DNA of 10,392 nt from the IMG/VR virus record IMGVR_UViG_3300025326_000020; one strand, written 5' to 3'. A program made the position numbers and the translations under genes. Position 1 is the first letter of the stretch; every line of letters starts with the position of its first letter. Under the pieces are notes generated by a model that did not search any database, had not been told where the DNA came from, and saw nothing but the letters and a program-made list of their open reading frames with translations. Below are positions 521 to 9,078 of the stretch, one piece after another. The DNA is from a virus. Its lineage: Duplodnaviria > Heunggongvirae > Uroviricota > Caudoviricetes.

Positions 521-842
521 ATATGTCCAGATTTAGGCTGCCATGCCTGATTTATTGTACTTAGAACATTTGCCCGATTTCCAACAATTGCTCTGATAGG
601 TAATGGAATTCGACATTTGTCCGATTTGAGTGGTATTCGCATGATTCCCACCATCTTACCACAATGGTGGGATTGTCCGGTTCGGTAATGTATGGGATGA
701 CTTTAGTCACTTTGCCCACACATGTACCTGTTTCGCACATTTGTACTTTTTCGATAATATCCTGCCTAGTTACGATGGTTCCTACCTTTAAGCTCATGTT
801 TGCCCCTTTTGATAGGGCATGGCAGTCTAAAACTAGACATAT
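521..842. repeat. Gene-enclosing inverted repeat 1 (arms 521-547 and 816-842)
   Basis: ATATGTCCAGATTTAGGCTGCCATGCC versus reverse complement of the right arm ATATGTCTAGTTTTAGACTGCCATGCC; 24/27. Confidence 0.9.
561..797 (-). CDS. Hypothetical protein (78 aa), possibly an SH3/KOW-like beta barrel
   Basis: RBS AAGGGG; LKVGTIV...VGKVTKV...IVVRW pattern; exactly enclosed by the 521-547/816-842 inverted repeat. Confidence 0.8.
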   Translation of the reverse strand: MSLKVGTIVTRQDIIEKVQMCETGTCVGKVTKVIPYITEPDNPTIVVRWWESCEYHSNRTNVEFHYLSEQLLEIGQMF

Positions 843-1201
843 ACGGATATAACGGGGTATGGGTGGTTTGGGGGTTTAGTAGGACTCTACGTAGTATGCA
901 GTAGTTTCAGTGGAAAAGTCCCAATCTTCCCATTGGTCCACATCGCCCATAATGCCTGGATCTTCTGATATGTCCTTGATGTCCTCTAGGAGGTACATAA
1001 GGCTTTCATCCGAATCGTCCTCTTTGAGCAATTTCTCCACATGTGTCTTTAATGTCCGAATTGCTTCCGGAAATGTGTCGAAATCGCCCAAAGGGGTACC
1101 TGTCAGACTTTCGTCATCAATCGGCTGATATGATACAGACCATCCCATTTTGTCCTCTTTCGAGATATAGTTACCCATACCCCGATATATCCGTACATGT
1201 C
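836..1201. repeat. Gene-enclosing inverted repeat 2 (836-864 and 1173-1201)
   Basis: GACATATACGGATATAACGGGGTATGGGT versus GACATGTACGGATATATCGGGGTATGGGT; 27/29. Confidence 0.95.
876..1148 (-). CDS. Highly acidic hypothetical protein (90 aa); start revised from 1349 to 1148
   Basis: Motif GAGGACAAA-ATG at 1148; MGWSVSYQPIDDES...; the track's 5' extension crosses repeat arms and overlaps the upstream gene. Confidence 0.8.
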   Translation of the reverse strand: MGWSVSYQPIDDESLTGTPLGDFDTFPEAIRTLKTHVEKLLKEDDSDESLMYLLEDIKDISEDPGIMGDVDQWEDWDFSTETTAYYVESY

Positions 1202-1202
1202 C

Positions 1203-1553
1203 ACACATATCCAACTTTAACCTACCTTGTGCTGATTTGGAAGGTTTTGCTACTATGTCACGGTTTGTGGTGGAATGTCCGATTTGGGAGGCTTTGAGGG
1301 TTGTTCCCGATCTGTCGCTCTTGTCATAAGAGCAGCCTGATCTTCCCATTCGTCCACATATTGGGTGTTATGGGACATACCATCCCATTCGTCGTAGTTT
1401 ATCCACTTTGCCCGACTATCATCCCAATAGCCCGATTCGTTCTCTTCGCGCATTGTGCGGCGATTGTACTCTTCTTCCGCATAGTCGCGTTCATCACTAT
1501 TGTTCATTTTGCCCACCTTTGTCTGACAAGGTAGGATAGAGCTGGATATGTGT
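1203..1553. repeat. Gene-enclosing inverted repeat 3 (1203-1230 and 1526-1553)
   Basis: ACACATATCCAACTTTAACCTACCTTGT versus ACACATATCCAGCTCTATCCTACCTTGT; 25/28. Confidence 0.9.
1253..1507 (-). CDS. Acidic, Y/W-rich hypothetical protein (84 aa); start revised to 1507
   Basis: AAAGGTGGGCAAA-ATG; MNNSDERDYAEEEY...; enclosed by the 1203-1230/1526-1553 inverted repeat. Confidence 0.7.
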   Translation of the reverse strand: MNNSDERDYAEEEYNRRTMREENESGYWDDSRAKWINYDEWDGMSHNTQYVDEWEDQAALMTRATDREQPSKPPKSDIPPQTVT

Positions 1554-1846
1554 TGGTATAGTAGCTTTAGACCGGCATGTCCGTTTTGTACTAGTTGTTG
1601 GTAAGTGAGGCGAAATCTGCCTTTTCGGCGATAAAGCGAACATCCTCCTTAATGTGCAGCAATGTCTCAATTGCTACAATTCCTGCCTCAATGCGGCTTT
1701 CGTCGCTTTCTGCACTAACTAGATCAAATGTGGCCTTTGTGTAGGTTGCCACCAATTGTCCGAAATGCTTCATAAAGGCGTTAACGTCCATTTTGTCCTC
1801 CAAAGGATGATTTGGTAGGACATGCCGGTTTAGAGCTACTATACCA
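1554..1846. repeat. Gene-enclosing inverted repeat 4 (1554-1582 and 1818-1846)
   Basis: TGGTATAGTAGCTTTAGACCGGCATGTCC versus TGGTATAGTAGCTCTAAACCGGCATGTCC; 27/29. Confidence 0.95.
1591..1791 (-). CDS. Hypothetical helical protein (66 aa); start revised to 1791
   Basis: GGAGGACAAA-ATG; MDVNAFMKHFGQLV... Confidence 0.8.
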   Translation of the reverse strand: MDVNAFMKHFGQLVATYTKATFDLVSAESDESRIEAGIVAIETLLHIKEDVRFIAEKADFASLTNN

Positions 1847-1847
1847 T

Positions 1848-2185
1848 GGATCATCTGGTTTATGGAGGTATGTTGGGCATTGTGCGGATTTAGCGGGTAA
1901 TTGCCTTTCGAGTAGGATCGTACGAATTGCGCCATGCGTTCCTAATGTCACGAAGTGCCCTGCTAGTAGCCAGTTTGTCCGTTTCGTCCTCAATGCCAGA
2001 CATGTCTACCATTCGATAGATTGCCTCGAATGAGGTAGTCAGTCCGATTAGTCGCATGAGTCCCTTAACTACTGACCTGTGGATTTTGCCCGAAGGATGC
2101 GGGTTTGGCCACATTTGCGCCCAAATGTCCATTTTGTGCTCCTTGTCAGGTTTTGCCCGACATACCCCCATAGACCAGATGATCC
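1848..2185. repeat. Gene-enclosing inverted repeat 5 (1848-1879 and 2154-2185)
   Basis: GGATCATCTGGTTTATGGAGGTATGTTGGGCA versus GGATCATCTGGTCTATGGGGGTATGTCGGGCA; 29/32. Confidence 0.95.
1890..2132 (-). CDS. Hypothetical protein (80 aa); start revised to 2132
   Basis: AAGGAGCACAAA-ATG; MDIWAQMWPNPHPSGK... Confidence 0.8.
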   Translation of the reverse strand: MDIWAQMWPNPHPSGKIHRSVVKGLMRLIGLTTSFEAIYRMVDMSGIEDETDKLATSRALRDIRNAWRNSYDPTRKAITR

Positions 2186-2342
2186 CTATTTACCCCTCCC
2201 TGTCCATATGTGTCCGGATTTGTGACGTATTGTCAGGGAGTCACCGATTCCTTCGGAAATGTTCAATTCTTGAGGACGTATCCGTATCCGTCCCTATATG
2301 TCGGTATTTGTCCTGACATGTCCGAATTTGTCGGTGCATCTT

Positions 2343-2640
2343 GGACTTACTACCTTCTGTCGGACATGTACGACATGCCCGATTTTTACCAGGTGTACCT
2401 TGGGTACTGGTTTCGGTTGATTTGATACATTTTGACCGCAATGTCCGTTTCGTACTCGATGACCGACATGTCAGGTTCCCCACACATGTCCAGAATGCCG
2501 AAAATGTCCATTATGTGCAGTTTTTCCATTATCTTCTCATATGCCCGCTTTGTCCCTTTACGCAACAATTCGTATGAATCATCCATTTTGTCTCCTTTGT
2601 GAACATTTATCGTACATGTCCGATAGGAGGTAGTAAGTCC
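2343..2640. repeat. Gene-enclosing inverted repeat 6 (2343-2373 and 2610-2640)
   Basis: GGACTTACTACCTTCTGTCGGACATGTACGA versus GGACTTACTACCTCCTATCGGACATGTACGA; 29/31. Confidence 0.95.
2386..2586 (-). CDS. Hypothetical protein (66 aa); start revised to 2586
   Basis: AAAGGAGACAAA-ATG; MDDSYELLRKGTKRAY... Confidence 0.8.
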   Translation of the reverse strand: MDDSYELLRKGTKRAYEKIMEKLHIMDIFGILDMCGEPDMSVIEYETDIAVKMYQINRNQYPRYTW

Positions 2641-2660
2641 TATTTCTACCGATAAGACCA

Positions 2661-3026
2661 ACATTTCCAGGTTTAAATGCATATGTCCGCTTTGAGTGGG
2701 TTTGTGCTACTTTACAGTGATTGTCCCGTTAGGGAGCTTTTCAACTGTTGCGTACCATTTGCGACTTGTGTACGGATTTGGACCAACAACGGTGTATTTG
2801 ATACCAATGTCCATATTGTCCATCATGACCGTTTTGCCTGCGTTTGGTCCAAATGCGTCAGTTACGTAGAATTCCACCTTTGTCGGGTACGTGGCGATTC
2901 TACCCTTAAGCTCCTTTTTGGTTGGAATGTCCGCATTGGTGTTAATATCTCTTGCGCCCACGTTTACGTACATTTGTGCTCCTTGTCCGATTTTATACGG
3001 ACATATGCACATAGACCCGGAAATGT
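2661..3026. repeat. Gene-enclosing inverted repeat 7 (2661-2689 and 2998-3026; gapped extension to 2648/3042)
   Basis: ACATTTCCAGGTTTAAATGCATATGTCCG versus ACATTTCCGGGTCTATGTGCATATGTCCG; 25/29. Confidence 0.9.
2707..2973 (-). CDS. Phage hypothetical protein (88 aa); start revised to 2973
   Basis: AAGGAGCACAA-ATG. TKKELK...VVGPNPYTSRKWYATV resembles, from memory, a small unknown-function family in actinobacterial phages; not verified by search. Confidence 0.8.
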   Translation of the reverse strand: MYVNVGARDINTNADIPTKKELKGRIATYPTKVEFYVTDAFGPNAGKTVMMDNMDIGIKYTVVGPNPYTSRKWYATVEKLPNGTITVK

Positions 3027-3028
3027 CC

Positions 3029-3333
3029 TGGTTTGTATCGGTTTAGACGGGTATGTCCGAAAATGTACTAGATCGTGCAGTTTTGGAATGCTTCGAAGGC
3101 ATTTGCCCATTCGTGGGCTGAATGCCAGATTCGCACCCAAATGAGATCATTGCCCCATATGCGCACTATCTCCACATAGTACCAATTGTCCATCCTGTCC
3201 GGTTTGCTTGCTTTGACCAGAATGGCCATTAGGTCAGGATTGTCATAAAACTTCCTTGCTGCTACGATGTGTCCCATTTTGTCCTCCATTGTCCGTTTTG
3301 AGAGGACATACCCGTTTAGACCGATACAAACCA
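3029..3333. repeat. Gene-enclosing inverted repeat 8 (3029-3058 and 3304-3333)
   Basis: TGGTTTGTATCGGTTTAGACGGGTATGTCC versus TGGTTTGTATCGGTCTAAACGGGTATGTCC; 28/30. Confidence 0.95.
3068..3277 (-). CDS. Hypothetical protein (69 aa); start revised to 3277
   Basis: GGAGGACAAA-ATG; MGHIVAARKFYDNPD... Confidence 0.8.
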   Translation of the reverse strand: MGHIVAARKFYDNPDLMAILVKASKPDRMDNWYYVEIVRIWGNDLIWVRIWHSAHEWANAFEAFQNCTI

Positions 3334-3355
3334 AAAGGCATAGTTTCGTGCCTTT
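3334..3355. other. Local hairpin (7-bp stem) at the head of the left gene block
   Basis: AAAGGCA-TAGTTTCG-TGCCTTT; abuts repeat 8. Followed by UUGGUUUG on the minus strand, so a weak terminator is possible. Confidence 0.5.
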
Positions 3356-3368
3356 GTCCGGTTCTGTC

Positions 3369-3410
3369 ACTATTGACTTATTAAGTAACGGTTTGACTGG
3401 GTTTCACCGG
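3369..3410 (-). promoter_or_regulatory. Conserved 42-bp element, copy 1 (candidate promoter or operator of the left gene block)
   Basis: 33/42 identical to 5328-5369; both copies lie directly upstream of a minus-strand gene block. Function is inferred. Confidence 0.5.
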
Positions 3411-3684
3411 ATTTCTACCGTTCCCAGCCGGTTTGGTATCTAATGCCGTCTTTTGTCCGATTCGGTGCTTTTTTGCTACTTTCAGTCTACTCTCGCCTAG
3501 TTTGGGCTGATTTATCATGATATGACCGATTTACCAGCTTATAGCAGGGCAAGTTTTGTACCGATTTAGCGGGATATGACGGATATGTCCGATTTACCGT
3601 ATATTCGGGGCAAACTGGACATGATCTTGTGAGATTTGTCACACCACTAAATCCACTCAACAGTGGTAATATCCGGACAAGTGC

Positions 3685-3973
3685 TAGATTGGGTAGATAT
3701 GAACTGGTATGTCCGTTTTGACTAGTTTAGGCTGTATCCTGCTGGTATGTACTCACTTGTCACTCTTGGCATGAAATGTACGTATTCGTCTGTCTTGTGC
3801 CAAATTACCTCTTTTGGGAGGTTTTCGAGTCGTGTGTACAGGTTTGACCGCTTTCGTCCTAGAATGTTCCAAACGCTAACTTTGCGGTGTTTGCCTGAAT
3901 AGCCCATTTTTGTCTCCTATGTCCGTTTTGTCTGCTGGGAAGCGGACATACCAGTACAAATCTACCCAATCTA
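3685..3973. repeat. Gene-enclosing inverted repeat 9 (3685-3715 and 3943-3973)
   Basis: TAGATTGGGTAGATATGAACTGGTATGTCCG versus TAGATTGGGTAGATTTGTACTGGTATGTCCG; 29/31. Confidence 0.95.
3722..3907 (-). CDS. Basic hypothetical protein (61 aa)
   Basis: AGGAGACAAAA-ATG; MGYSGKHRKVSVW... Confidence 0.8.
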   Translation of the reverse strand: MGYSGKHRKVSVWNILGRKRSNLYTRLENLPKEVIWHKTDEYVHFMPRVTSEYIPAGYSLN

Positions 3974-4235
3974 CGCATATCCGGATAAAAGAGCATATGT
4001 CCGTTTTGGGTGGTTAAATGCGGGTTAGTGACATTTTGAACGCATGCTGGGCATTTGTCGTGATTGTCTGCAAATGCACTATTGTGTCACACTTTGCCCT
4101 GCTGTGACACCTTTCGCACGTTTCCTTGTGATTCATTGCGTTTAGTCTGGCTTTGTCCCATTCTGCCCACAAATCTACCATTTTGTCCTCCATGTCCTAA
4201 ATGGGTGGACATATGCTCATTTATCCGGACATGCG
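3974..4235. repeat. Gene-enclosing inverted repeat 10 (3974-4002 and 4207-4235)
   Basis: CGCATATCCGGATAAAAGAGCATATGTCC versus CGCATGTCCGGATAAATGAGCATATGTCC; 27/29. Confidence 0.95.
4014..4181 (-). CDS. Hypothetical 55-aa protein with an H-x3-C-x2-C-x5-C putative Zn site (not in ORF track)
   Basis: GGAGGACAAA-ATG at 4181; MVDLWAEWDKARLNAMNHKETCERCHSRAKCDTIVHLQTITTNAQHAFKMSLTRI; TAA at 4016-4014; enclosed by its own inverted repeat. Confidence 0.8.
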   Translation of the reverse strand: MVDLWAEWDKARLNAMNHKETCERCHSRAKCDTIVHLQTITTNAQHAFKMSLTRI

Positions 4236-4236
4236 C

Positions 4237-4610
4237 GCATTTGTCCAGGTATGTGATGGTATGTCCGCTTTGTCAGTTACATTCCAAATGCCTCACTAAG
4301 CCACATTTGGGCTGCTTCCTCCTCATCTGAGGTGGTTAGTACCAATTGAGGGTTGTTGCCCTCTTTGTCCGTTTTGGACACCTGGTACCCATTTGTGAAA
4401 GTTGCCACAAATGAGTGAACTTGCACCAGTTGTACCAAAACGTCCTCATTGTCCCATTTCTGGGCTTCTGCGGTGGTTAAGTAGGAAAAAGGCTCATCTA
4501 CAACACTTTGCCCTACATGTCCAATTTGGGTACGATCTGACATGATATGCTCCTTTTGTTCGTTTTGTGCAAACCGAAACGGACATACCATCACAAACCC
4601 GGACAAATGC
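4237..4610. repeat. Gene-enclosing inverted repeat 11 (4237-4267 and 4580-4610)
   Basis: GCATTTGTCCAGGTATGTGATGGTATGTCCG versus GCATTTGTCCGGGTTTGTGATGGTATGTCCG; 29/31. Confidence 0.95.
4277..4543 (-). CDS. Hypothetical protein (88 aa); start revised to 4543
   Basis: AAAGGAGCATATC-ATG; MSDRTQIGHVGQSV... Confidence 0.75.
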   Translation of the reverse strand: MSDRTQIGHVGQSVVDEPFSYLTTAEAQKWDNEDVLVQLVQVHSFVATFTNGYQVSKTDKEGNNPQLVLTTSDEEEAAQMWLSEAFGM

Positions 4611-4611
4611 T

Positions 4612-4965
4612 GACTTATCCGGATTTAGGGGTGTATGTCCTTTTACGACCTATTTGACTAGATCGCGCCGATTTTCCACGGTTCGACCTCTATGGTCGCT
4701 TCGCGTAGAATGTCGGTTGCCTCACCATTGTCGTTTATGAGGCATTCGCTCATAATGACCGTATTGCCCAAATTGGGCAATCTGACCACTACGTAGTATT
4801 TGTCCTCATTGTCGGGAGTGAGGAAATTCTCCTCATATCCCACAACTGTCCCGATTTGCACCCGGAAGTCGTCTTTGTCCAAATAGTACTGAGCGTCCAT
4901 GATTGTCTCCTTTGTCCATTTTACTTGGATTTGGGAGGACATACACCCTTAGATCCGGATAAGTC
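4612..4965. repeat. Gene-enclosing inverted repeat 12 (4612-4641 and 4936-4965)
   Basis: GACTTATCCGGATTTAGGGGTGTATGTCCT versus GACTTATCCGGATCTAAGGGTGTATGTCCT; 28/30. Confidence 0.95.
4658..4900 (-). CDS. Acidic hypothetical protein (80 aa), possibly SH3-like; start revised to 4900
   Basis: AAAGGAGACAATC-ATG; MDAQYYLDKDDFRVQIGTVVG... Confidence 0.8.
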   Translation of the reverse strand: MDAQYYLDKDDFRVQIGTVVGYEENFLTPDNEDKYYVVVRLPNLGNTVIMSECLINDNGEATDILREATIEVEPWKIGAI

Positions 4966-4972
4966 TCATTTG

Positions 4973-5290
4973 CCTCACATGTACCCTATGTCCGACATGT
5001 CCGTTTTTCCTACTTTAGGACTTTTTGGTCCTGATTGTCGGTCCTGTGTAGCTTGTCGACATTACGGCATAGATGAGGTTTGTCTCCTTTGGCCTGTTTC
5101 CATCCAGTACGTCCGATGTGACCCATTCTGTCCGTTCTAGCCGGGTTGCGAAGATTGCCCCATCTTTCCATTCTGTCACGGTCCATACCTCTCGTAACAA
5201 TTCGTATGAATTGTCCATTTTGTCCATTTTGTCTCCTATGTCCGTTTCTGCCCGGGGAGCGGACATGTCGGATATGGGGGACATGTGAGG
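4973..5290. repeat. Gene-enclosing inverted repeat 13 (4973-5003 and 5260-5290)
   Basis: CCTCACATGTACCCTATGTCCGACATGTCCG versus CCTCACATGTCCCCCATATCCGACATGTCCG; 28/31. Confidence 0.95.
5015..5227 (-). CDS. Hypothetical protein (70 aa); start revised to 5227 (or 5218)
   Basis: AGGAGACAAA-ATG; MDKMDNSYELLREVW... Confidence 0.75.
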   Translation of the reverse strand: MDKMDNSYELLREVWTVTEWKDGAIFATRLERTEWVTSDVLDGNRPKETNLIYAVMSTSYTGPTIRTKKS

Positions 5291-5292
5291 TT

Positions 5293-5312
5293 TAGCGGGA
5301 TAGCTCCCGCTA
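5293..5312. other. Local hairpin (8-bp stem) at the head of the five-gene block
   Basis: TAGCGGGA-TAGC-TCCCGCTA, between repeat 13 and the outer arm. Confidence 0.6.
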
Positions 5313-5327
5313 TGTCCGGATATCTCC

Positions 5328-5369
5328 ACTGTTGAGTTGATAAGTAACGATTTGGAGGGATTTCACCGG
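5328..5369 (-). promoter_or_regulatory. Conserved 42-bp element, copy 2
   Basis: Minus-strand consensus CCGGTGAAA-N8-AAA-N-CGTTACTTA; overlaps the outer stem arm. Confidence 0.5.
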
Positions 5370-5428
5370 CTTGTCGGATATTTGGGGAATGTCCGATAGT
5401 ACCGTTTCCCGCCCTTTGACCTACTTCA

Positions 5429-5437
5429 AGTATAGCA
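5429..5437 (-). promoter_or_regulatory. Candidate extended -10 element TG-C-TATACT facing the small-gene array
   Basis: Matches TGn-TAnnnT; no recognisable -35. A related TGCTATAAG lies at about 3538-3546, upstream of the other block. Confidence 0.3.
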
Positions 5438-6036
5438 TGGGCCTATTATGTCCATATATCGGATATGTCCGATATATGCGGATAATAGTTGGTGCATATA
5501 TGGTCATATATCCGGACATTTCGGGAATGTCGGACTGCAAATGTCGGCCTTAGTACGATATATCCTGATATAGTAGGGCAAAACGGACAGGGCATACCAG
5601 GGCAATCGCGACAATACCGACAAATCGGACATTTGTGGGTATTCGGGCTAATGGGGCATAGGCCACATATCGGGCACAGCCTGCCCGTATTATGATGATA
5701 TGTCCGGATATAGCGGACTGTGAAATTTGTCACTGGCCGGATATATGCGCATAAATCGGGCACGACCGCTGGCCGGCGCGAGAGTGTTGAAATATACCTT
5801 ATATCGTATATGTCCGATATATGCCCATATAGTAGGGCGCTGCCCTGCCGCCCCCCGCCCTGTCCGATTTGCCCCCTTATAATGTATATACGCGCATATA
5901 GGCTGATTTATCCGATTTAAGCCCATATATGAGGACAAATGGATGTCCTGATATATCGGCATAAATCAGGACAAAGATTAACTATATTACGAAATATCAA
6001 CATAAATCGGACATTCCGGTAGGTTTCGCGAAAATC

Positions 6037-6150
6037 GGTGTATTTTTCAAATGTTAGTAATTTTACATGATGATAGGTTTGTTTTTCAAATGTTAGTAAT
6101 TTTACATGATGATAGGTGTATTTTTCAAATGTTAGTAATTTTACATGATG
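6037..6150. repeat. 39-bp AT-rich tandem repeat, 2.9 copies
   Basis: Unit GGTGTATTTTTCAAATGTTAGTAATTTTACATGATGATA at 6037-6075, 6076-6114 (2 mismatches) and 6115-6150 (partial). Confidence 0.95.
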
Positions 6151-7647: not shown

Positions 7648-7665
7648 AAATTGATGAGGAAAATT

Positions 7666-9078
7666 ATGGTCGGCGAGGCAGTGCGGCAGGTCTCGAAGGA
7701 AAAATACTTCGAGCTGATTAAGTATGAGCCGCACGCCCGCCAACGAATGTTTCATGATTCTACCGCTAGATTTAAAATTCCAGTGTGTGGAAGAAGATTC
7801 GGAAAAACAGTAATGGGCGCCCGGGAAGCCGAACCCATTTTGATGATTCCAAACAAACTGGTGTGGATTGTCGGGCCGACATATGACCTTGGCGAGAAGG
7901 AATTCCGAGTTATTTGGAATGACATGATTGTCAAGTTAGGCTTGGGTAAAGAAAAATCTGTTAAAAGAGCCTTCAACAAGCGTGCCGGCGATATGTATAT
8001 TGAATTCCCATGGAATACTAGAGTTGAAGTGCGCAGTGCTGACCGGCCGGAAACGTTGGTTGGTGATGGTCTTGATTATGTTATTATGGCCGAAGCAGCC
8101 AAGCATACTAAGGAAACTTGGGATCGATTTATTCGACCAGCGTTAACTGATACTAAGGGTTCGGCTACCTTCAGCACCACGCCGGAAGGACAGAACTGGA
8201 TTCATGACTTGTGGCAGTTGGGTCAGAATCCAATGTTTGAGGAATATGAAAGCTGGCGCTTTCCATCTTGGGAAAATGTTCATATTTACCCAGATGGTAT
8301 AAACGATCAGGAAATTAAGCTCCTTGAGAGAACAATGCCATATGAATGGTTTCAGCAGGAAATTGCGGCTGACTTCACAACCTTCATGGGTAAGATTTAT
8401 TCTGAGTGGGATGAACAGACACACGTTAAGGCTACTAAGTTTAATCCGTTGTGGAAAAATTACATTGCCTTTGACTGGGGTTTCGTTAACCCGATGGCGG
8501 CAGTGGAGTTTCAAGTTGATCCAATGGACCGAGTACACATTTGGCGGATGCACTACAAAACTCACACCAGACTAGAAACCTTCCTTCAAGAAATGCAGGC
8601 AAGAGAGCAGCCACCTGGTTACCATATTAACCTTTGCTTCGGTGATGCCGCCGATCCAGAAGCTGTTGCTACTGTTTGTGCGAGATTTGGGCCATGCATT
8701 GCCGATCCAAAATCTAAGGATAACTGGCGAGAAGGCATAGATTTGGTCAAAGGTTTTTTGTCGACCCGTACCGTGGGCACGTCCGATGAATTCGAGACGC
8801 CGGTGGATGAGCCCTGGCTGTTCGTTGACCACTCCTGCTACGACATAATTCGTGAATTCAACAACTACCGTGCAGCGGCGCCGAGTACTGGTAAGCCAAG
8901 AAACCCGCGTGAAGATGCGCAGAAATACGACGACCACGCGCTAGACGCATTGCGGTATGGACTTATGCACATTTTCAAGTTGGGATCTACGATGTCTTTG
9001 TCGGAGTTTGTCAACGCAAACGAAATGAAAGATATTCCAGACAGGGGTTACTTTACCCAAAATATGGTGTTCTCATGA
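7666..9078 (+). CDS. terL: Terminase large subunit (about 470 aa); likely start 7666
   Basis: Walker A CGRRFGKT, Walker B-like YVIMAE, coupling motif STTP, RNase H-like nuclease acids (AFDWG, FGDAA, DDHALDALRY); RBS GAGGA before ATG 7666; followed by portal. Confidence 0.95.
   Translation: MVGEAVRQVSKEKYFELIKYEPHARQRMFHDSTARFKIPVCGRRFGKTVMGAREAEPILMIPNKLVWIVGPTYDLGEKEFRVIWNDMIVKLGLGKEKSVKRAFNKRAGDMYIEFPWNTRVEVRSADRPETLVGDGLDYVIMAEAAKHTKETWDRFIRPALTDTKGSATFSTTPEGQNWIHDLWQLGQNPMFEEYESWRFPSWENVHIYPDGINDQEIKLLERTMPYEWFQQEIAADFTTFMGKIYSEWDEQTHVKATKFNPLWKNYIAFDWGFVNPMAAVEFQVDPMDRVHIWRMHYKTHTRLETFLQEMQAREQPPGYHINLCFGDAADPEAVATVCARFGPCIADPKSKDNWREGIDLVKGFLSTRTVGTSDEFETPVDEPWLFVDHSCYDIIREFNNYRAAAPSTGKPRNPREDAQKYDDHALDALRYGLMHIFKLGSTMSLSEFVNANEMKDIPDRGYFTQNMVFS

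Follow-up and report, generated by a model that had tools for sequence, protein, structure and literature searches.

Why does each of the first small genes of a tailed phage lie between two complementary arms whose pairing is interrupted at the centre, and what would read that interruption? We addressed this question in a 10,392-nt stretch of viral DNA (the window; IMG/VR record IMGVR_UViG_3300025326_000020), which appears to represent the left arm of an uncultured soil phage, tailed and of lytic type.

Thirteen helices, each enclosing one gene

An independent scan of the window found 13 long-range inverted repeats, no more and no fewer, with arms of 27–32 nt and loops of 204–312 nt, and the same score was reached by none of 24 dinucleotide shuffles of the window. 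Each helix encloses one ribosome-binding site and one ORF. The ORF fits its loop closely, with medians of 25 nt between arm and start codon and 11 nt between stop codon and arm. The enclosed genes have 60–100 codons, their helices stand in tandem series of 10–13, and none of the early ORFs gave a significant family match. All 13 stems lie on the minus strand, as do two sigma-70-like promoters (TTGAAA-18-TAAAAT; assigned by consensus match, presumably active) located in tandem 39-bp repeats at 6037..6150 and directed leftward into the array.

The stems contain 32 non-Watson-Crick positions on the minus strand (15 CxA/AxC, 8 UxU, 8 G.U and 1 CxU), and no purine-purine opposition was found among the 13 of them. 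In eight stems, two mismatches stand exactly 2 bp apart and form a central tetrad with the pairs between them. Five of the eight read CxA, 2 bp, AxC: stem 4 (1554..1846; arms 1554–1582/1818–1846; ORF 1591–1791; tetrad 1830–1833/1567–1570), stem 6 (2343..2640; arms 2343–2373/2610–2640; ORF 2386–2586; tetrad 2624–2627/2356–2359), stem 8 (3029..3333; arms 3029–3058/3304–3333; ORF 3068–3277; tetrad 3316–3319/3043–3046), stem 12 (4612..4965; arms 4612–4641/4936–4965; ORF 4658–4900; tetrad 4949–4952/4625–4628) and stem 13 (4973..5290; arms 4973–5003/5260–5290; ORF 5015–5227; tetrad 5273–5276/4987–4990). Both arms carry CUAA in stems 4, 8 and 12, and the outer half of stem 13 holds the CxU. Stem 3 (1203..1553; arms 1203–1230/1526–1553; ORF 1253–1507; tetrad 1536–1539/1217–1220) and stem 7 (2661..3026; arms 2661–2689/2998–3026; ORF 2707–2973; tetrad 3011–3014/2673–2676) read CxA, 2 bp, UxU, and stem 9 (3685..3973; arms 3685–3715/3943–3973; ORF 3722–3907; tetrad 3956–3959/3699–3702) reads UxU, 2 bp, UxU. 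One central UxU is present in stem 2 (836..1201; arms 836–864/1173–1201; ORF 876–1148; tetrad 1185–1188/849–852, AUAU), stem 10 (3974..4235; arms 3974–4002/4207–4235; ORF 4014–4181; tetrad 4219–4222/3987–3990) and stem 11 (4237..4610; arms 4237–4267/4580–4610; ORF 4277–4543; tetrad 4593–4596/4251–4254). Stem 5 (1848..2185; arms 1848–1879/2154–2185; ORF 1890–2132; tetrad 2170–2173/1860–1863) has CxA at position 0 of the tetrad only, and a second CxA near its inner end. The original prediction had named the same eight and three stems, counted the same five and given the same mismatch composition without purine-purine clashes; our scan and recount reproduced each of these figures.

Stem 1 (521..842; arms 521–547/816–842; ORF 561–797, 78 aa) lacks the 2-bp geometry because its mismatches, UxU and AxC, stand 5 bp apart. 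Its 5' arm shares 7 nt with the 3' arm of stem 2, and it falls just outside the start at 836 that had been given for the array.

Folding in the sense RNA

The arms are matched gene by gene: of 18 variable columns, 17.6 are paired between cognate arms and 9.6 between non-cognate arms. When stems with homologous ORFs were compared, 262 both-side changes preserved pairing and 21 broke it. Outside the centre we counted 1425 Watson-Crick pairs, 57 G.U and 11 C.A, and this excess of G.U over C.A (binomial p 1.3e-8) identifies the sense RNA as the folding strand. Mean duplex energy was −45.4 kcal/mol on the minus strand and −47.4 kcal/mol on the plus strand, which bears out the earlier caution that stability leaves the strand unfixed. 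In minus-strand RNA from 3970 to 5295, MFE and centroid folding yielded four gene-closing helices in a row, with stems 10 and 11 in both folds and stems 12 and 13 in the MFE fold. These results support the helices as RNA-level features of the sense transcript.

The same data bear on a DNA-level explanation, in which the inverted repeats are the end-marks of mobile or swappable single-gene cassettes, similar to integron attC sites or the PeSLs of T4-type phages, and the mismatches are by-products. Gene content and order vary between relatives by whole units, and one stem type may enclose different ORF families. In PeSL cassettes, too, a variable early region contains small genes whose functions are unknown, each bounded by a repeated motif, with units gained, lost and re-assorted between relatives (PMC2839356, PMC4122927). 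However, PeSLs are direct repeats with a promoter and a terminator hairpin (PMC2839356, PMC4122927), whereas the arms here are inverted, gene-specific and covarying, unlike a shared recombinase site. The G.U bias of the sense strand indicates RNA, unit shuffling may be a side effect of shared motifs, and the dyad stays unexplained. As a primary function, cassette mobility is thus largely refuted, and we consider it very improbable.

Readings as a local hairpin or as an integron were both tested and rejected. An attC-like local hairpin would require neighbouring arms to pair, yet adjacent arms match at 9.8 of 18 columns with −17 kcal/mol, whereas cognate arms reach 17.6 of 18 and −45 kcal/mol. 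An integron-like system was set aside on the gene-by-gene covariation of the arms and on a search of three complete relatives, in which no tyrosine recombinase was found.

A two-fold symmetric mismatch pair at the dyad

The geometry is also present in six related phage contigs, giving 63 gene-spanning helices in total. For column counts, 54 stems from the seven contigs were aligned with the inner AUGUCC/GGACAU motif as the sole anchor. Two columns separated by 2 bp are non-pairs in 43/54 and 48/54 stems and hold 91 of all 110 non-pairs; the other 27 helix columns together contain 19, and the two columns between the mismatch columns contain none. G.U never occupies either mismatch column; almost every mismatch there is CxA/AxC or UxU. 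Each arm reads 5'-CWWA-3' on the mRNA strand, which produces CxA, two A-U pairs and AxC, a two-fold symmetric centre that sits on the dyad of a ~30-bp helix. The half-helices measure 12–16 bp, with a median of 14 bp on both sides. Of two relatives with complete genomes, the 81-kb one has 11 helices and the 76-kb one has 10, all within one 4-kb block, with one further helix match elsewhere in ~150 kb. The more distant clade L034 retains helices that span genes, but of its four only one shows the 2-bp mismatch pair. The conserved gene-enclosing architecture with a central mismatch pair is real, and our data establish the helices together with their covariation, strand, geometry and conservation in relatives. 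We found no description of such a layout in the literature.

The two halves differ in sequence conservation beyond the tetrad, with a tendency to AUCCGGRU in the outer half and AUGUCCG at the end of the inner half. In the complete relatives CGGACAU is confined to the early region, and it also occurs in 5' UTRs, directly ahead of the SD. A symmetric RNase III dimer alone does not account for this asymmetry, which, together with the distribution of CGGACAU and the lack of family matches among the early ORFs, would suit recognition of the CWWA dyad by another factor, with the AUGUCCG/CGGACAU end as a second recognition element. Such a reader could be a phage protein from one of the unannotated early ORFs, or a further dsRNA-specific enzyme of the host, for example a sequence-specific dsRNase of the Mini-III type or an enzyme that modifies bases at the AxC mismatches. 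No protein presents itself as a candidate, the complete relatives yielded neither a dsRBD nor an RNase III domain, and nothing observed demands a new factor; we regard this reading as unlikely.

A putative RNase III site

Judging from the sequence, the central mismatch pair probably marks a place where host RNase III cuts or binds. Tentatively, and at slightly under even chances, we favor the possibility that the enzyme cuts each helix at the dyad to give clamped monocistronic mRNAs. First, the ~30-bp helices exceed the two turns needed by RNase III (PMC1540722). Second, in E. coli catalysis is suppressed when a G-C pair stands beside the scissile bond, an effect that weaker pairs lift (PMC1540722). 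Third, the two positions between cuts are ~90% paired in vivo (PMC6212723). Fourth, long-range (>100 nt) mRNA helices are commonly cut by B. subtilis RNase III (PMC11780869). Length, two-fold symmetry and weak pairs by the presumed cuts are compatible with a dimeric RNase III, and the earlier cleavage proposal is supported in part. Against it, in vivo sites of the E. coli and B. subtilis enzymes are more than 90% paired at the cut-flanking positions (PMC6212723, PMC11780869), where the phage helices are mismatched. Furthermore, if the cut is assumed at CUA^A, the equivalent of proximal-box position 2 holds G-C or C-G on the outer side of 30/63 stems and on the inner side of 38/63, pairs that weaken binding by an E. 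coli rule that may not be the host's (PMC1540722). Cutting may also be limited to one strand where a target site contains mismatches, loops or bulges (PMC3867540).

With a bulge-helix-bulge motif, E. coli RNase III can still bind while cutting is abolished (PMC1540722, PMC3867540). Pairing around the cuts is the rule at mapped sites (PMC6212723, PMC11780869), and helices with the present geometry could accordingly be bound by the enzyme yet left uncut. The helices may then be uncut clamps that make each cistron an insulated, independently folding loop, a possible but doubtful alternative. The ORFs fill the loops tightly, so the stop and start regions are close together, and a terminating ribosome would be brought beside its own ribosome-binding site; scanning by endonucleases may be blocked. 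The weak tetrad would act as a catalytic antideterminant or a flexible hinge, at the centre where every allowed cleavage register of a 30-bp helix falls, and the helix would survive cellular RNase III, possibly with the enzyme bound. However, ~13 bp would suffice to close a loop, so this reading gives no reason for the conserved ~30 bp or for the symmetry of the halves. Catalysis would be blocked by mismatches of any kind, but those used are only the small, helix-compatible CxA and UxU, and the two inner pairs are kept. The precedent itself, the 'uncoupling' motif of Calin-Jageman and Nicholson (2003), likewise places two non-pairs around a very short helix at the catalytic sites, but it consists of bulges and was obtained in vitro (PMC1540722, PMC3867540); here the 1x1 mismatches, CxA or UxU, are symmetric and their effect is putative.

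A further step proposed originally, ligation of the clamped ends into a covalently closed circular mRNA, is hardly credible. After a CUA^A cut, 5'-pA and 3'-UA-OH would adjoin in a four-base loop, now broken, on top of a 13-bp stem; on steric grounds a ligase could plausibly act on it. The suggested search for RNase III-like and RNA ligase genes, run in three complete stem-bearing relatives, detected no RtcB, Rnl2-type ligase, RNase III domain or dsRBD; the Rnl1 search gave no information, its control being silent. RtcB and a ligase are carried by G003, the stem-less relative. Moreover, RtcB joins 3'-P and 5'-OH ends, while RNase III leaves 5'-P and 3'-OH ends. The circle is therefore unsupported, because no RtcB or Rnl2-type ligase was found in these relatives and the end chemistry of RtcB does not match.

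Archaeal rRNA processing stems likewise have a long-range flanking helix whose two-fold symmetric defect is read by a dimeric nuclease, and there the splicing endonuclease and RtcB yield circular pre-rRNA (PMC10515664, PMC3867540). In that motif 3-nt bulges flank a 4-bp helix, the enzyme is archaeal and the ends are 2',3'-cyclic-P and 5'-OH (PMC10515664, PMC3867540). An archaeal bulge-helix-bulge was rejected here, where single 1x1 mismatches surround 2 bp in a bacterial-type phage whose complete relatives have no detected RtcB.

Model for the early operon

Returning to cleavage by RNase III, among the closest known systems are the early-mRNA sites of T7 (R0.3 to R1.3) and SP82, the latter cut by B. 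subtilis RNase III. They share with the array an early polycistronic phage transcript that starts at strong tandem promoters of host type, a dsRNA element at each gene boundary whose target site includes non-Watson-Crick positions, and stable monocistronic mRNAs as the outcome, which is proposed here (PMC4838370, PMC3867540). Those signals are intergenic local hairpins, usually nicked on one strand to leave a 3' hairpin (PMC4838370, PMC3867540), whereas here adjacent-arm pairing is weak and the selected helix spans the whole gene; therefore a cut would clamp both ends of one mRNA. The layout also resembles known long-range helices of flanking sequence from which RNase III frees an enclosed functional RNA by a 2-nt-stagger cut, but here the enclosed RNAs are mRNAs, repeated in tandem, with a conserved mismatch dyad.

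We infer RNase III as the reader, as well as the cutting, its position and its stabilising effect. In the model, the two tandem promoters would drive a leftward early operon whose first 13 small genes, of unknown function, would each be looped by their own gene-specific helix in the operon RNA. Dimeric host RNase III would dock on the dyad and make a staggered CUA^A cut on each arm, and cuts on both arms would therefore leave 2-nt 3' overhangs. The mismatches would be weak positions by the scissile bonds that fix one cleavage register. With all helices cut, the polycistronic transcript would become monocistronic mRNAs, each with its 5'-monophosphate end and its overhanging 3' end held in a ~13-bp duplex ending AUGUCCG/CGGACAU, and the clamped ends would be protected against 5'-end-dependent nucleases and 3' exonucleases.

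A leftward operon with one long-range helix per gene

In the right part of the window lie the gene for a large terminase subunit (TerL) at 7651-9078, which has a weak Pfam match and is 35% identical to actinophage terminases, and, from 9182 to the window end, the gene for a Mu/P23-45-type portal. Left of these structural genes, a 39-bp unit is repeated in 2.9 tandem copies (6037-6150) and carries two near-consensus sigma-70-like promoters (TTGAAA-18-TAAAAT) on the minus strand, which are aimed at the array; the arrangement recalls T7, whose early promoters are also in tandem. The array is a leftward operon of small ORFs, each having a strong ribosome-binding site (GGAGGACAAA-AUG). Scanning the window without gaps along its anti-diagonals (match +1, mismatch -2, score ≥16, loop 100-700 nt) turned up 13 inverted repeats and no more, all within 521-5290; of 24 dinucleotide-shuffled sequences, none reached that score. 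A single ORF of 55-90 codons lies inside each repeat, with a short 5' UTR containing the Shine-Dalgarno (SD) sequence and a 3' UTR of 6-22 nt, and neighboring units adjoin within 0-7 nt except at two longer gaps. No enclosed ORF had a significant family match in PHROGs or Pfam, and an Rfam search of the window returned nothing relevant. When 1.3 kb of the minus-strand RNA was folded, four consecutive gene-closing helices appeared in both the MFE and the centroid structures. The original prediction listed eight of the 13 stems as having two central mismatches exactly 2 bp apart and three as having a single central UxU; both lists were exact on recheck, and our recount of non-Watson-Crick positions on the minus-strand RNA gave the same tally (15 CxA/AxC, 8 UxU, 8 G.U and 1 CxU).

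Distribution of the array among relatives

A terminase query retrieved 39 IMG/VR loci. The six closest (TerL 78-83% identical) have the same arrays, located upstream of and divergent from TerL, and three loci of a more distant clade (L031, L033 and L034; 55% identical) have gene-spanning helices with a less regular center. Approximately 30 other loci, some 350 kb in total, contain essentially no such helices and act as an internal negative control. Of the complete relatives, two that have terminal repeats (81 and 76 kb) carry 11 and 10 helices, each set in a single 4-kb block, with only one unrelated hit outside the block. Comparison of the window with the six closest loci revealed that one stem type can hold different ORF families and that the order of ORF families varies by contig; thus, stems and ORFs re-assort.

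A megablast search against isolated phages gave no match, and the best TerL match among isolates was 35% identical, so that there is no cultured relative or published transcriptome. The window sequence was found only in three soil DNA runs, and no RNA run was listed with the array or a 1.3-kb part of it. The only genome match was a 6-kb contig binned with a Chitinophagaceae MAG; we do not trust this host assignment, since the phage relies on strong Shine-Dalgarno sites and on promoters of the -35/-10 type. A Ro60/TROVE protein is encoded by each of the three complete stem-bearing relatives (G001:C1:70874-71755, G002:C1:44004-44903 and G004:C1:14061-14945) and is absent from five stem-less relatives and from one 82%-complete stem-bearing fragment. 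This co-occurrence may only mirror shared ancestry, and a link of Ro60 to the turnover of highly structured early RNAs would be speculation.

A symmetric mismatch dyad at the helix center

Aligned on their centers, 63 stems extend from column -13 to column +16, with half-helices of 12-16 bp per side (medians 14 and 14) around a four-position center. Non-pairs concentrate at two columns: column 0 (46/63; CxA in 38, UxU in 7, paired in 17) and column +3 (53/63; AxC in 41, UxU in 12, paired in 10). The intervening columns +1 and +2 hold Watson-Crick pairs in 62 of 63 stems, nearly always U-A then A-U, and G.U never occurs at column 0 or +3. Both mismatches are present in 42 stems, one in 15 and none in 6, with a similar share in every contig. 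The first alignment favored mismatches at columns 0 and +3; after re-anchoring on the AUGUCC/GGACAU motif alone (54 stems), 91 of 110 helix non-pairs fell in the two mismatch columns and none in the pair of columns in between. In the 5'-to-3' direction the central tetrad is identical on the two arms, most often CUAA, which gives the center two-fold symmetry. The sequence outside the tetrad is asymmetric: the inner half ends in a near-invariant AUGUCCG/CGGACAU, the outer half tends to AUCCGGRU, and the outer ends are the most variable part of the arms.

The CGGACAU/AUGUCCG motif also occurs outside the helices, and in the complete relatives it is confined to the early region. Copies in both orientations are dense in an ORF-free leader of ~700 nt (5291-6030) and in an internal gap of 350 nt (3334-3684). 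Additional sense-strand copies directly precede several SD sequences; local pairing of these copies with the AUGUCCG end of the 5' arm could produce an alternative fold. A 29-nt inverted repeat (3651-3679 and 5313-5341; 90% complementary, 1633 nt apart) forms a higher-order helix around the five promoter-proximal gene units, and its center on the minus strand is AxA beside G.U, not the CWWA tetrad. A hairpin resembling a terminator, with UUUUGG after it (3334-3355, minus strand), lies where the 350-nt gap ends, immediately before the 5' arm of stem 8, and suggests a possible division of the array into two units of transcription or processing. Just past the last gene-spanning helix on the minus strand there is a conserved, imperfect local hairpin of ~35 bp (93-193, and 2943-3025 in the close relative L002) that no U-run follows.

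Pairing is under selection in the sense RNA

Cognate arms pair in 17.6 of 18 variable columns, as opposed to 9.6 of 18 for non-cognate arms. When stems with homologous ORFs were compared, 262 both-side changes and 37 one-sided changes keep pairing and 21 break it; pairing of the arms is under selection. Outside the center, G.U exceeds C.A on the minus strand by 57 to 11 (p 1.3e-8). Since a minus-strand G.U is a plus-strand C.A, this excess identifies the sense RNA as the strand under selection and rejects folding of the plus-strand (antisense) RNA. The slightly higher stability of the plus strand (mean duplex energy -47.4 versus -45.4 kcal/mol) arises because its center would be G.U. With the sense strand selected, the central CxA pairs are real, maintained mismatches in the mRNA.

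Several known arrangements were considered and rejected. A T7-type local hairpin or an attC-like junction hairpin would be formed by adjacent arms, which pair in only 9.8 of 18 columns with a mean of -17 kcal/mol, in contrast to -45 kcal/mol for the cognate gene-spanning arms. An integron-like attC array is opposed both by these weak junction hairpins and by the missing tyrosine recombinase (PF00589), which is absent from the three complete stem-bearing relatives while the control matched in 14 of 14 genomes. A transposon or MITE was rejected because the arms vary most at their outer ends, which is not the pattern of transposon ends. The PeSL cassette has a direct-repeat early promoter and a terminator stem-loop at each boundary, whereas the arms here are gene-specific inverted repeats; promoter-like sites show no enrichment over shuffles (17 found, 14.8 expected), and strong ones occur only at 6060-6128. 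Units do re-assort between relatives, in a way that resembles PeSL-mediated shuffling (PMC2839356) and probably proceeds via shared motifs; this explains neither the covariation nor the dyad. The archaeal bulge-helix-bulge requires two 3-nt bulges on opposite strands with a 4-bp helix between them; the stems instead have 1x1 mismatches 2 bp apart and no bulges, and their arms align gap-free.

The dyad as a candidate RNase III site

Inside a bacterium, an RNA helix of 30 bp will encounter RNase III, and the array must therefore use or evade the enzyme. We tentatively favor use, in which host RNase III may cut at the dyad; the cut positions considered here are those presumed by this cleavage model. 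The dyad lies midway along a helix whose length just suffices for one dimer, and a CUA^A cut on both arms would leave the canonical 2-nt 3' overhang. The minimum for RNase III is about two turns (20-22 bp) of quasi-continuous dsRNA (PMC1540722), and the stems have the length of a class 1 double-cleavage site. In E. coli sites, the two positions between the staggered cuts are ~90% paired in vivo, usually with a G-C (PMC6212723), and A-U/U-A is tolerated there in B. subtilis (PMC11780869); in the stems these positions are paired, as A-U or U-A. B. subtilis RNase III also often cuts helices formed across >100 nt of mRNA (PMC11780869). The cut-flanking positions are >90% paired in the mapped E. 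coli and B. subtilis sites (PMC6212723, PMC11780869), and this counts against use of the stems, which are mismatched there. The staggered cleavage site of the original prediction is partly supported: helix length and the pairing between the cuts fit it, and the mismatches at the flanking columns 0 and +3 do not.

The flanking mismatches can be read in either direction. Pertzev and Nicholson found that a strong G-C beside the scissile bond suppresses catalysis with binding unaffected, and that a weaker pair relieves the block (PMC1540722); a mismatch at this place is an extreme weak pair. The E. coli proximal-box rules call for A-U/U-A at position 2 and exclude a strong G-C at position 4, beside the scissile bond (PMC1540722). 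With the presumed CUA^A cut, position 4 is a mismatch or A-U, with G-C in only 4 of 126 cases, and outer-side position 1 has G-C in 48 of 63, both fitting E. coli; at the equivalent of position 2, G-C or C-G occurs in 30/63 stems (outer side) and 38/63 (inner side), a misfit that counts against cleavage. This mapping of positions is our own reading, and the E. coli rules may not apply to the host enzyme. Mismatches can also restrict cutting to one strand (PMC3867540), and a bulge-helix-bulge motif uncouples binding from cutting (PMC1540722), both of which count against cleavage at the dyad. Therefore, evasion deserves weight as a somewhat unlikely alternative, in which the helix is an uncut clamp and the dyad is its central antideterminant. 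That the dyad is instead read by a different factor seems improbable.

The proposed circularization of the messages

The original prediction went one step further and saw the clamped ends as poised for ligation into a circle if an RNA ligase is available. In the fullest form of this idea, a host ligase would join the ends after a staggered cut at the CWWA dyad and convert every early message into a closed circular coding mRNA with a four-base loop on a 13-bp stem. If true, a bacterial virus would make natural, translated, exonuclease-proof circular mRNAs. We consider this very improbable. RtcB chemistry does not match RNase III ends, and neither RtcB (PF01139) nor an Rnl2-type ligase (PF09414) was found in the three complete stem-bearing relatives; the ligase negative rests on these two profiles, as the control for Rnl1 (PF09511) was silent everywhere. 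The same genomes gave no RNase III domain or dsRBD. The one relative with RtcB and a ligase, G003, has no stems.

Significance

We found no description in the literature of an operon that gives each cistron a separate long-range helix bearing a conserved mismatch dyad, a search of incomplete coverage that is not proof of novelty. The parts are already familiar, namely RNase III-type helices and the processing of phage early mRNA. The 63 natural variants constitute a ready-made mutational series that could reveal whether symmetric CxA or UxU mismatches beside the scissile bonds direct, restrict or block cleavage by a bacterial RNase III. If the dyad is not cut, the array shows how a phage keeps a 30-bp dsRNA intact despite RNase III, which would be equally informative. 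If it is cut, the helices would provide compact natural cistron insulation and mRNA stabilization, directly usable as a synthetic-biology part, and this phage family would unite the rRNA-operon design, in which a flanking helix frees the enclosed RNA, with T7-style early-mRNA processing, turning a tandem array into one end-clamped mRNA per gene.
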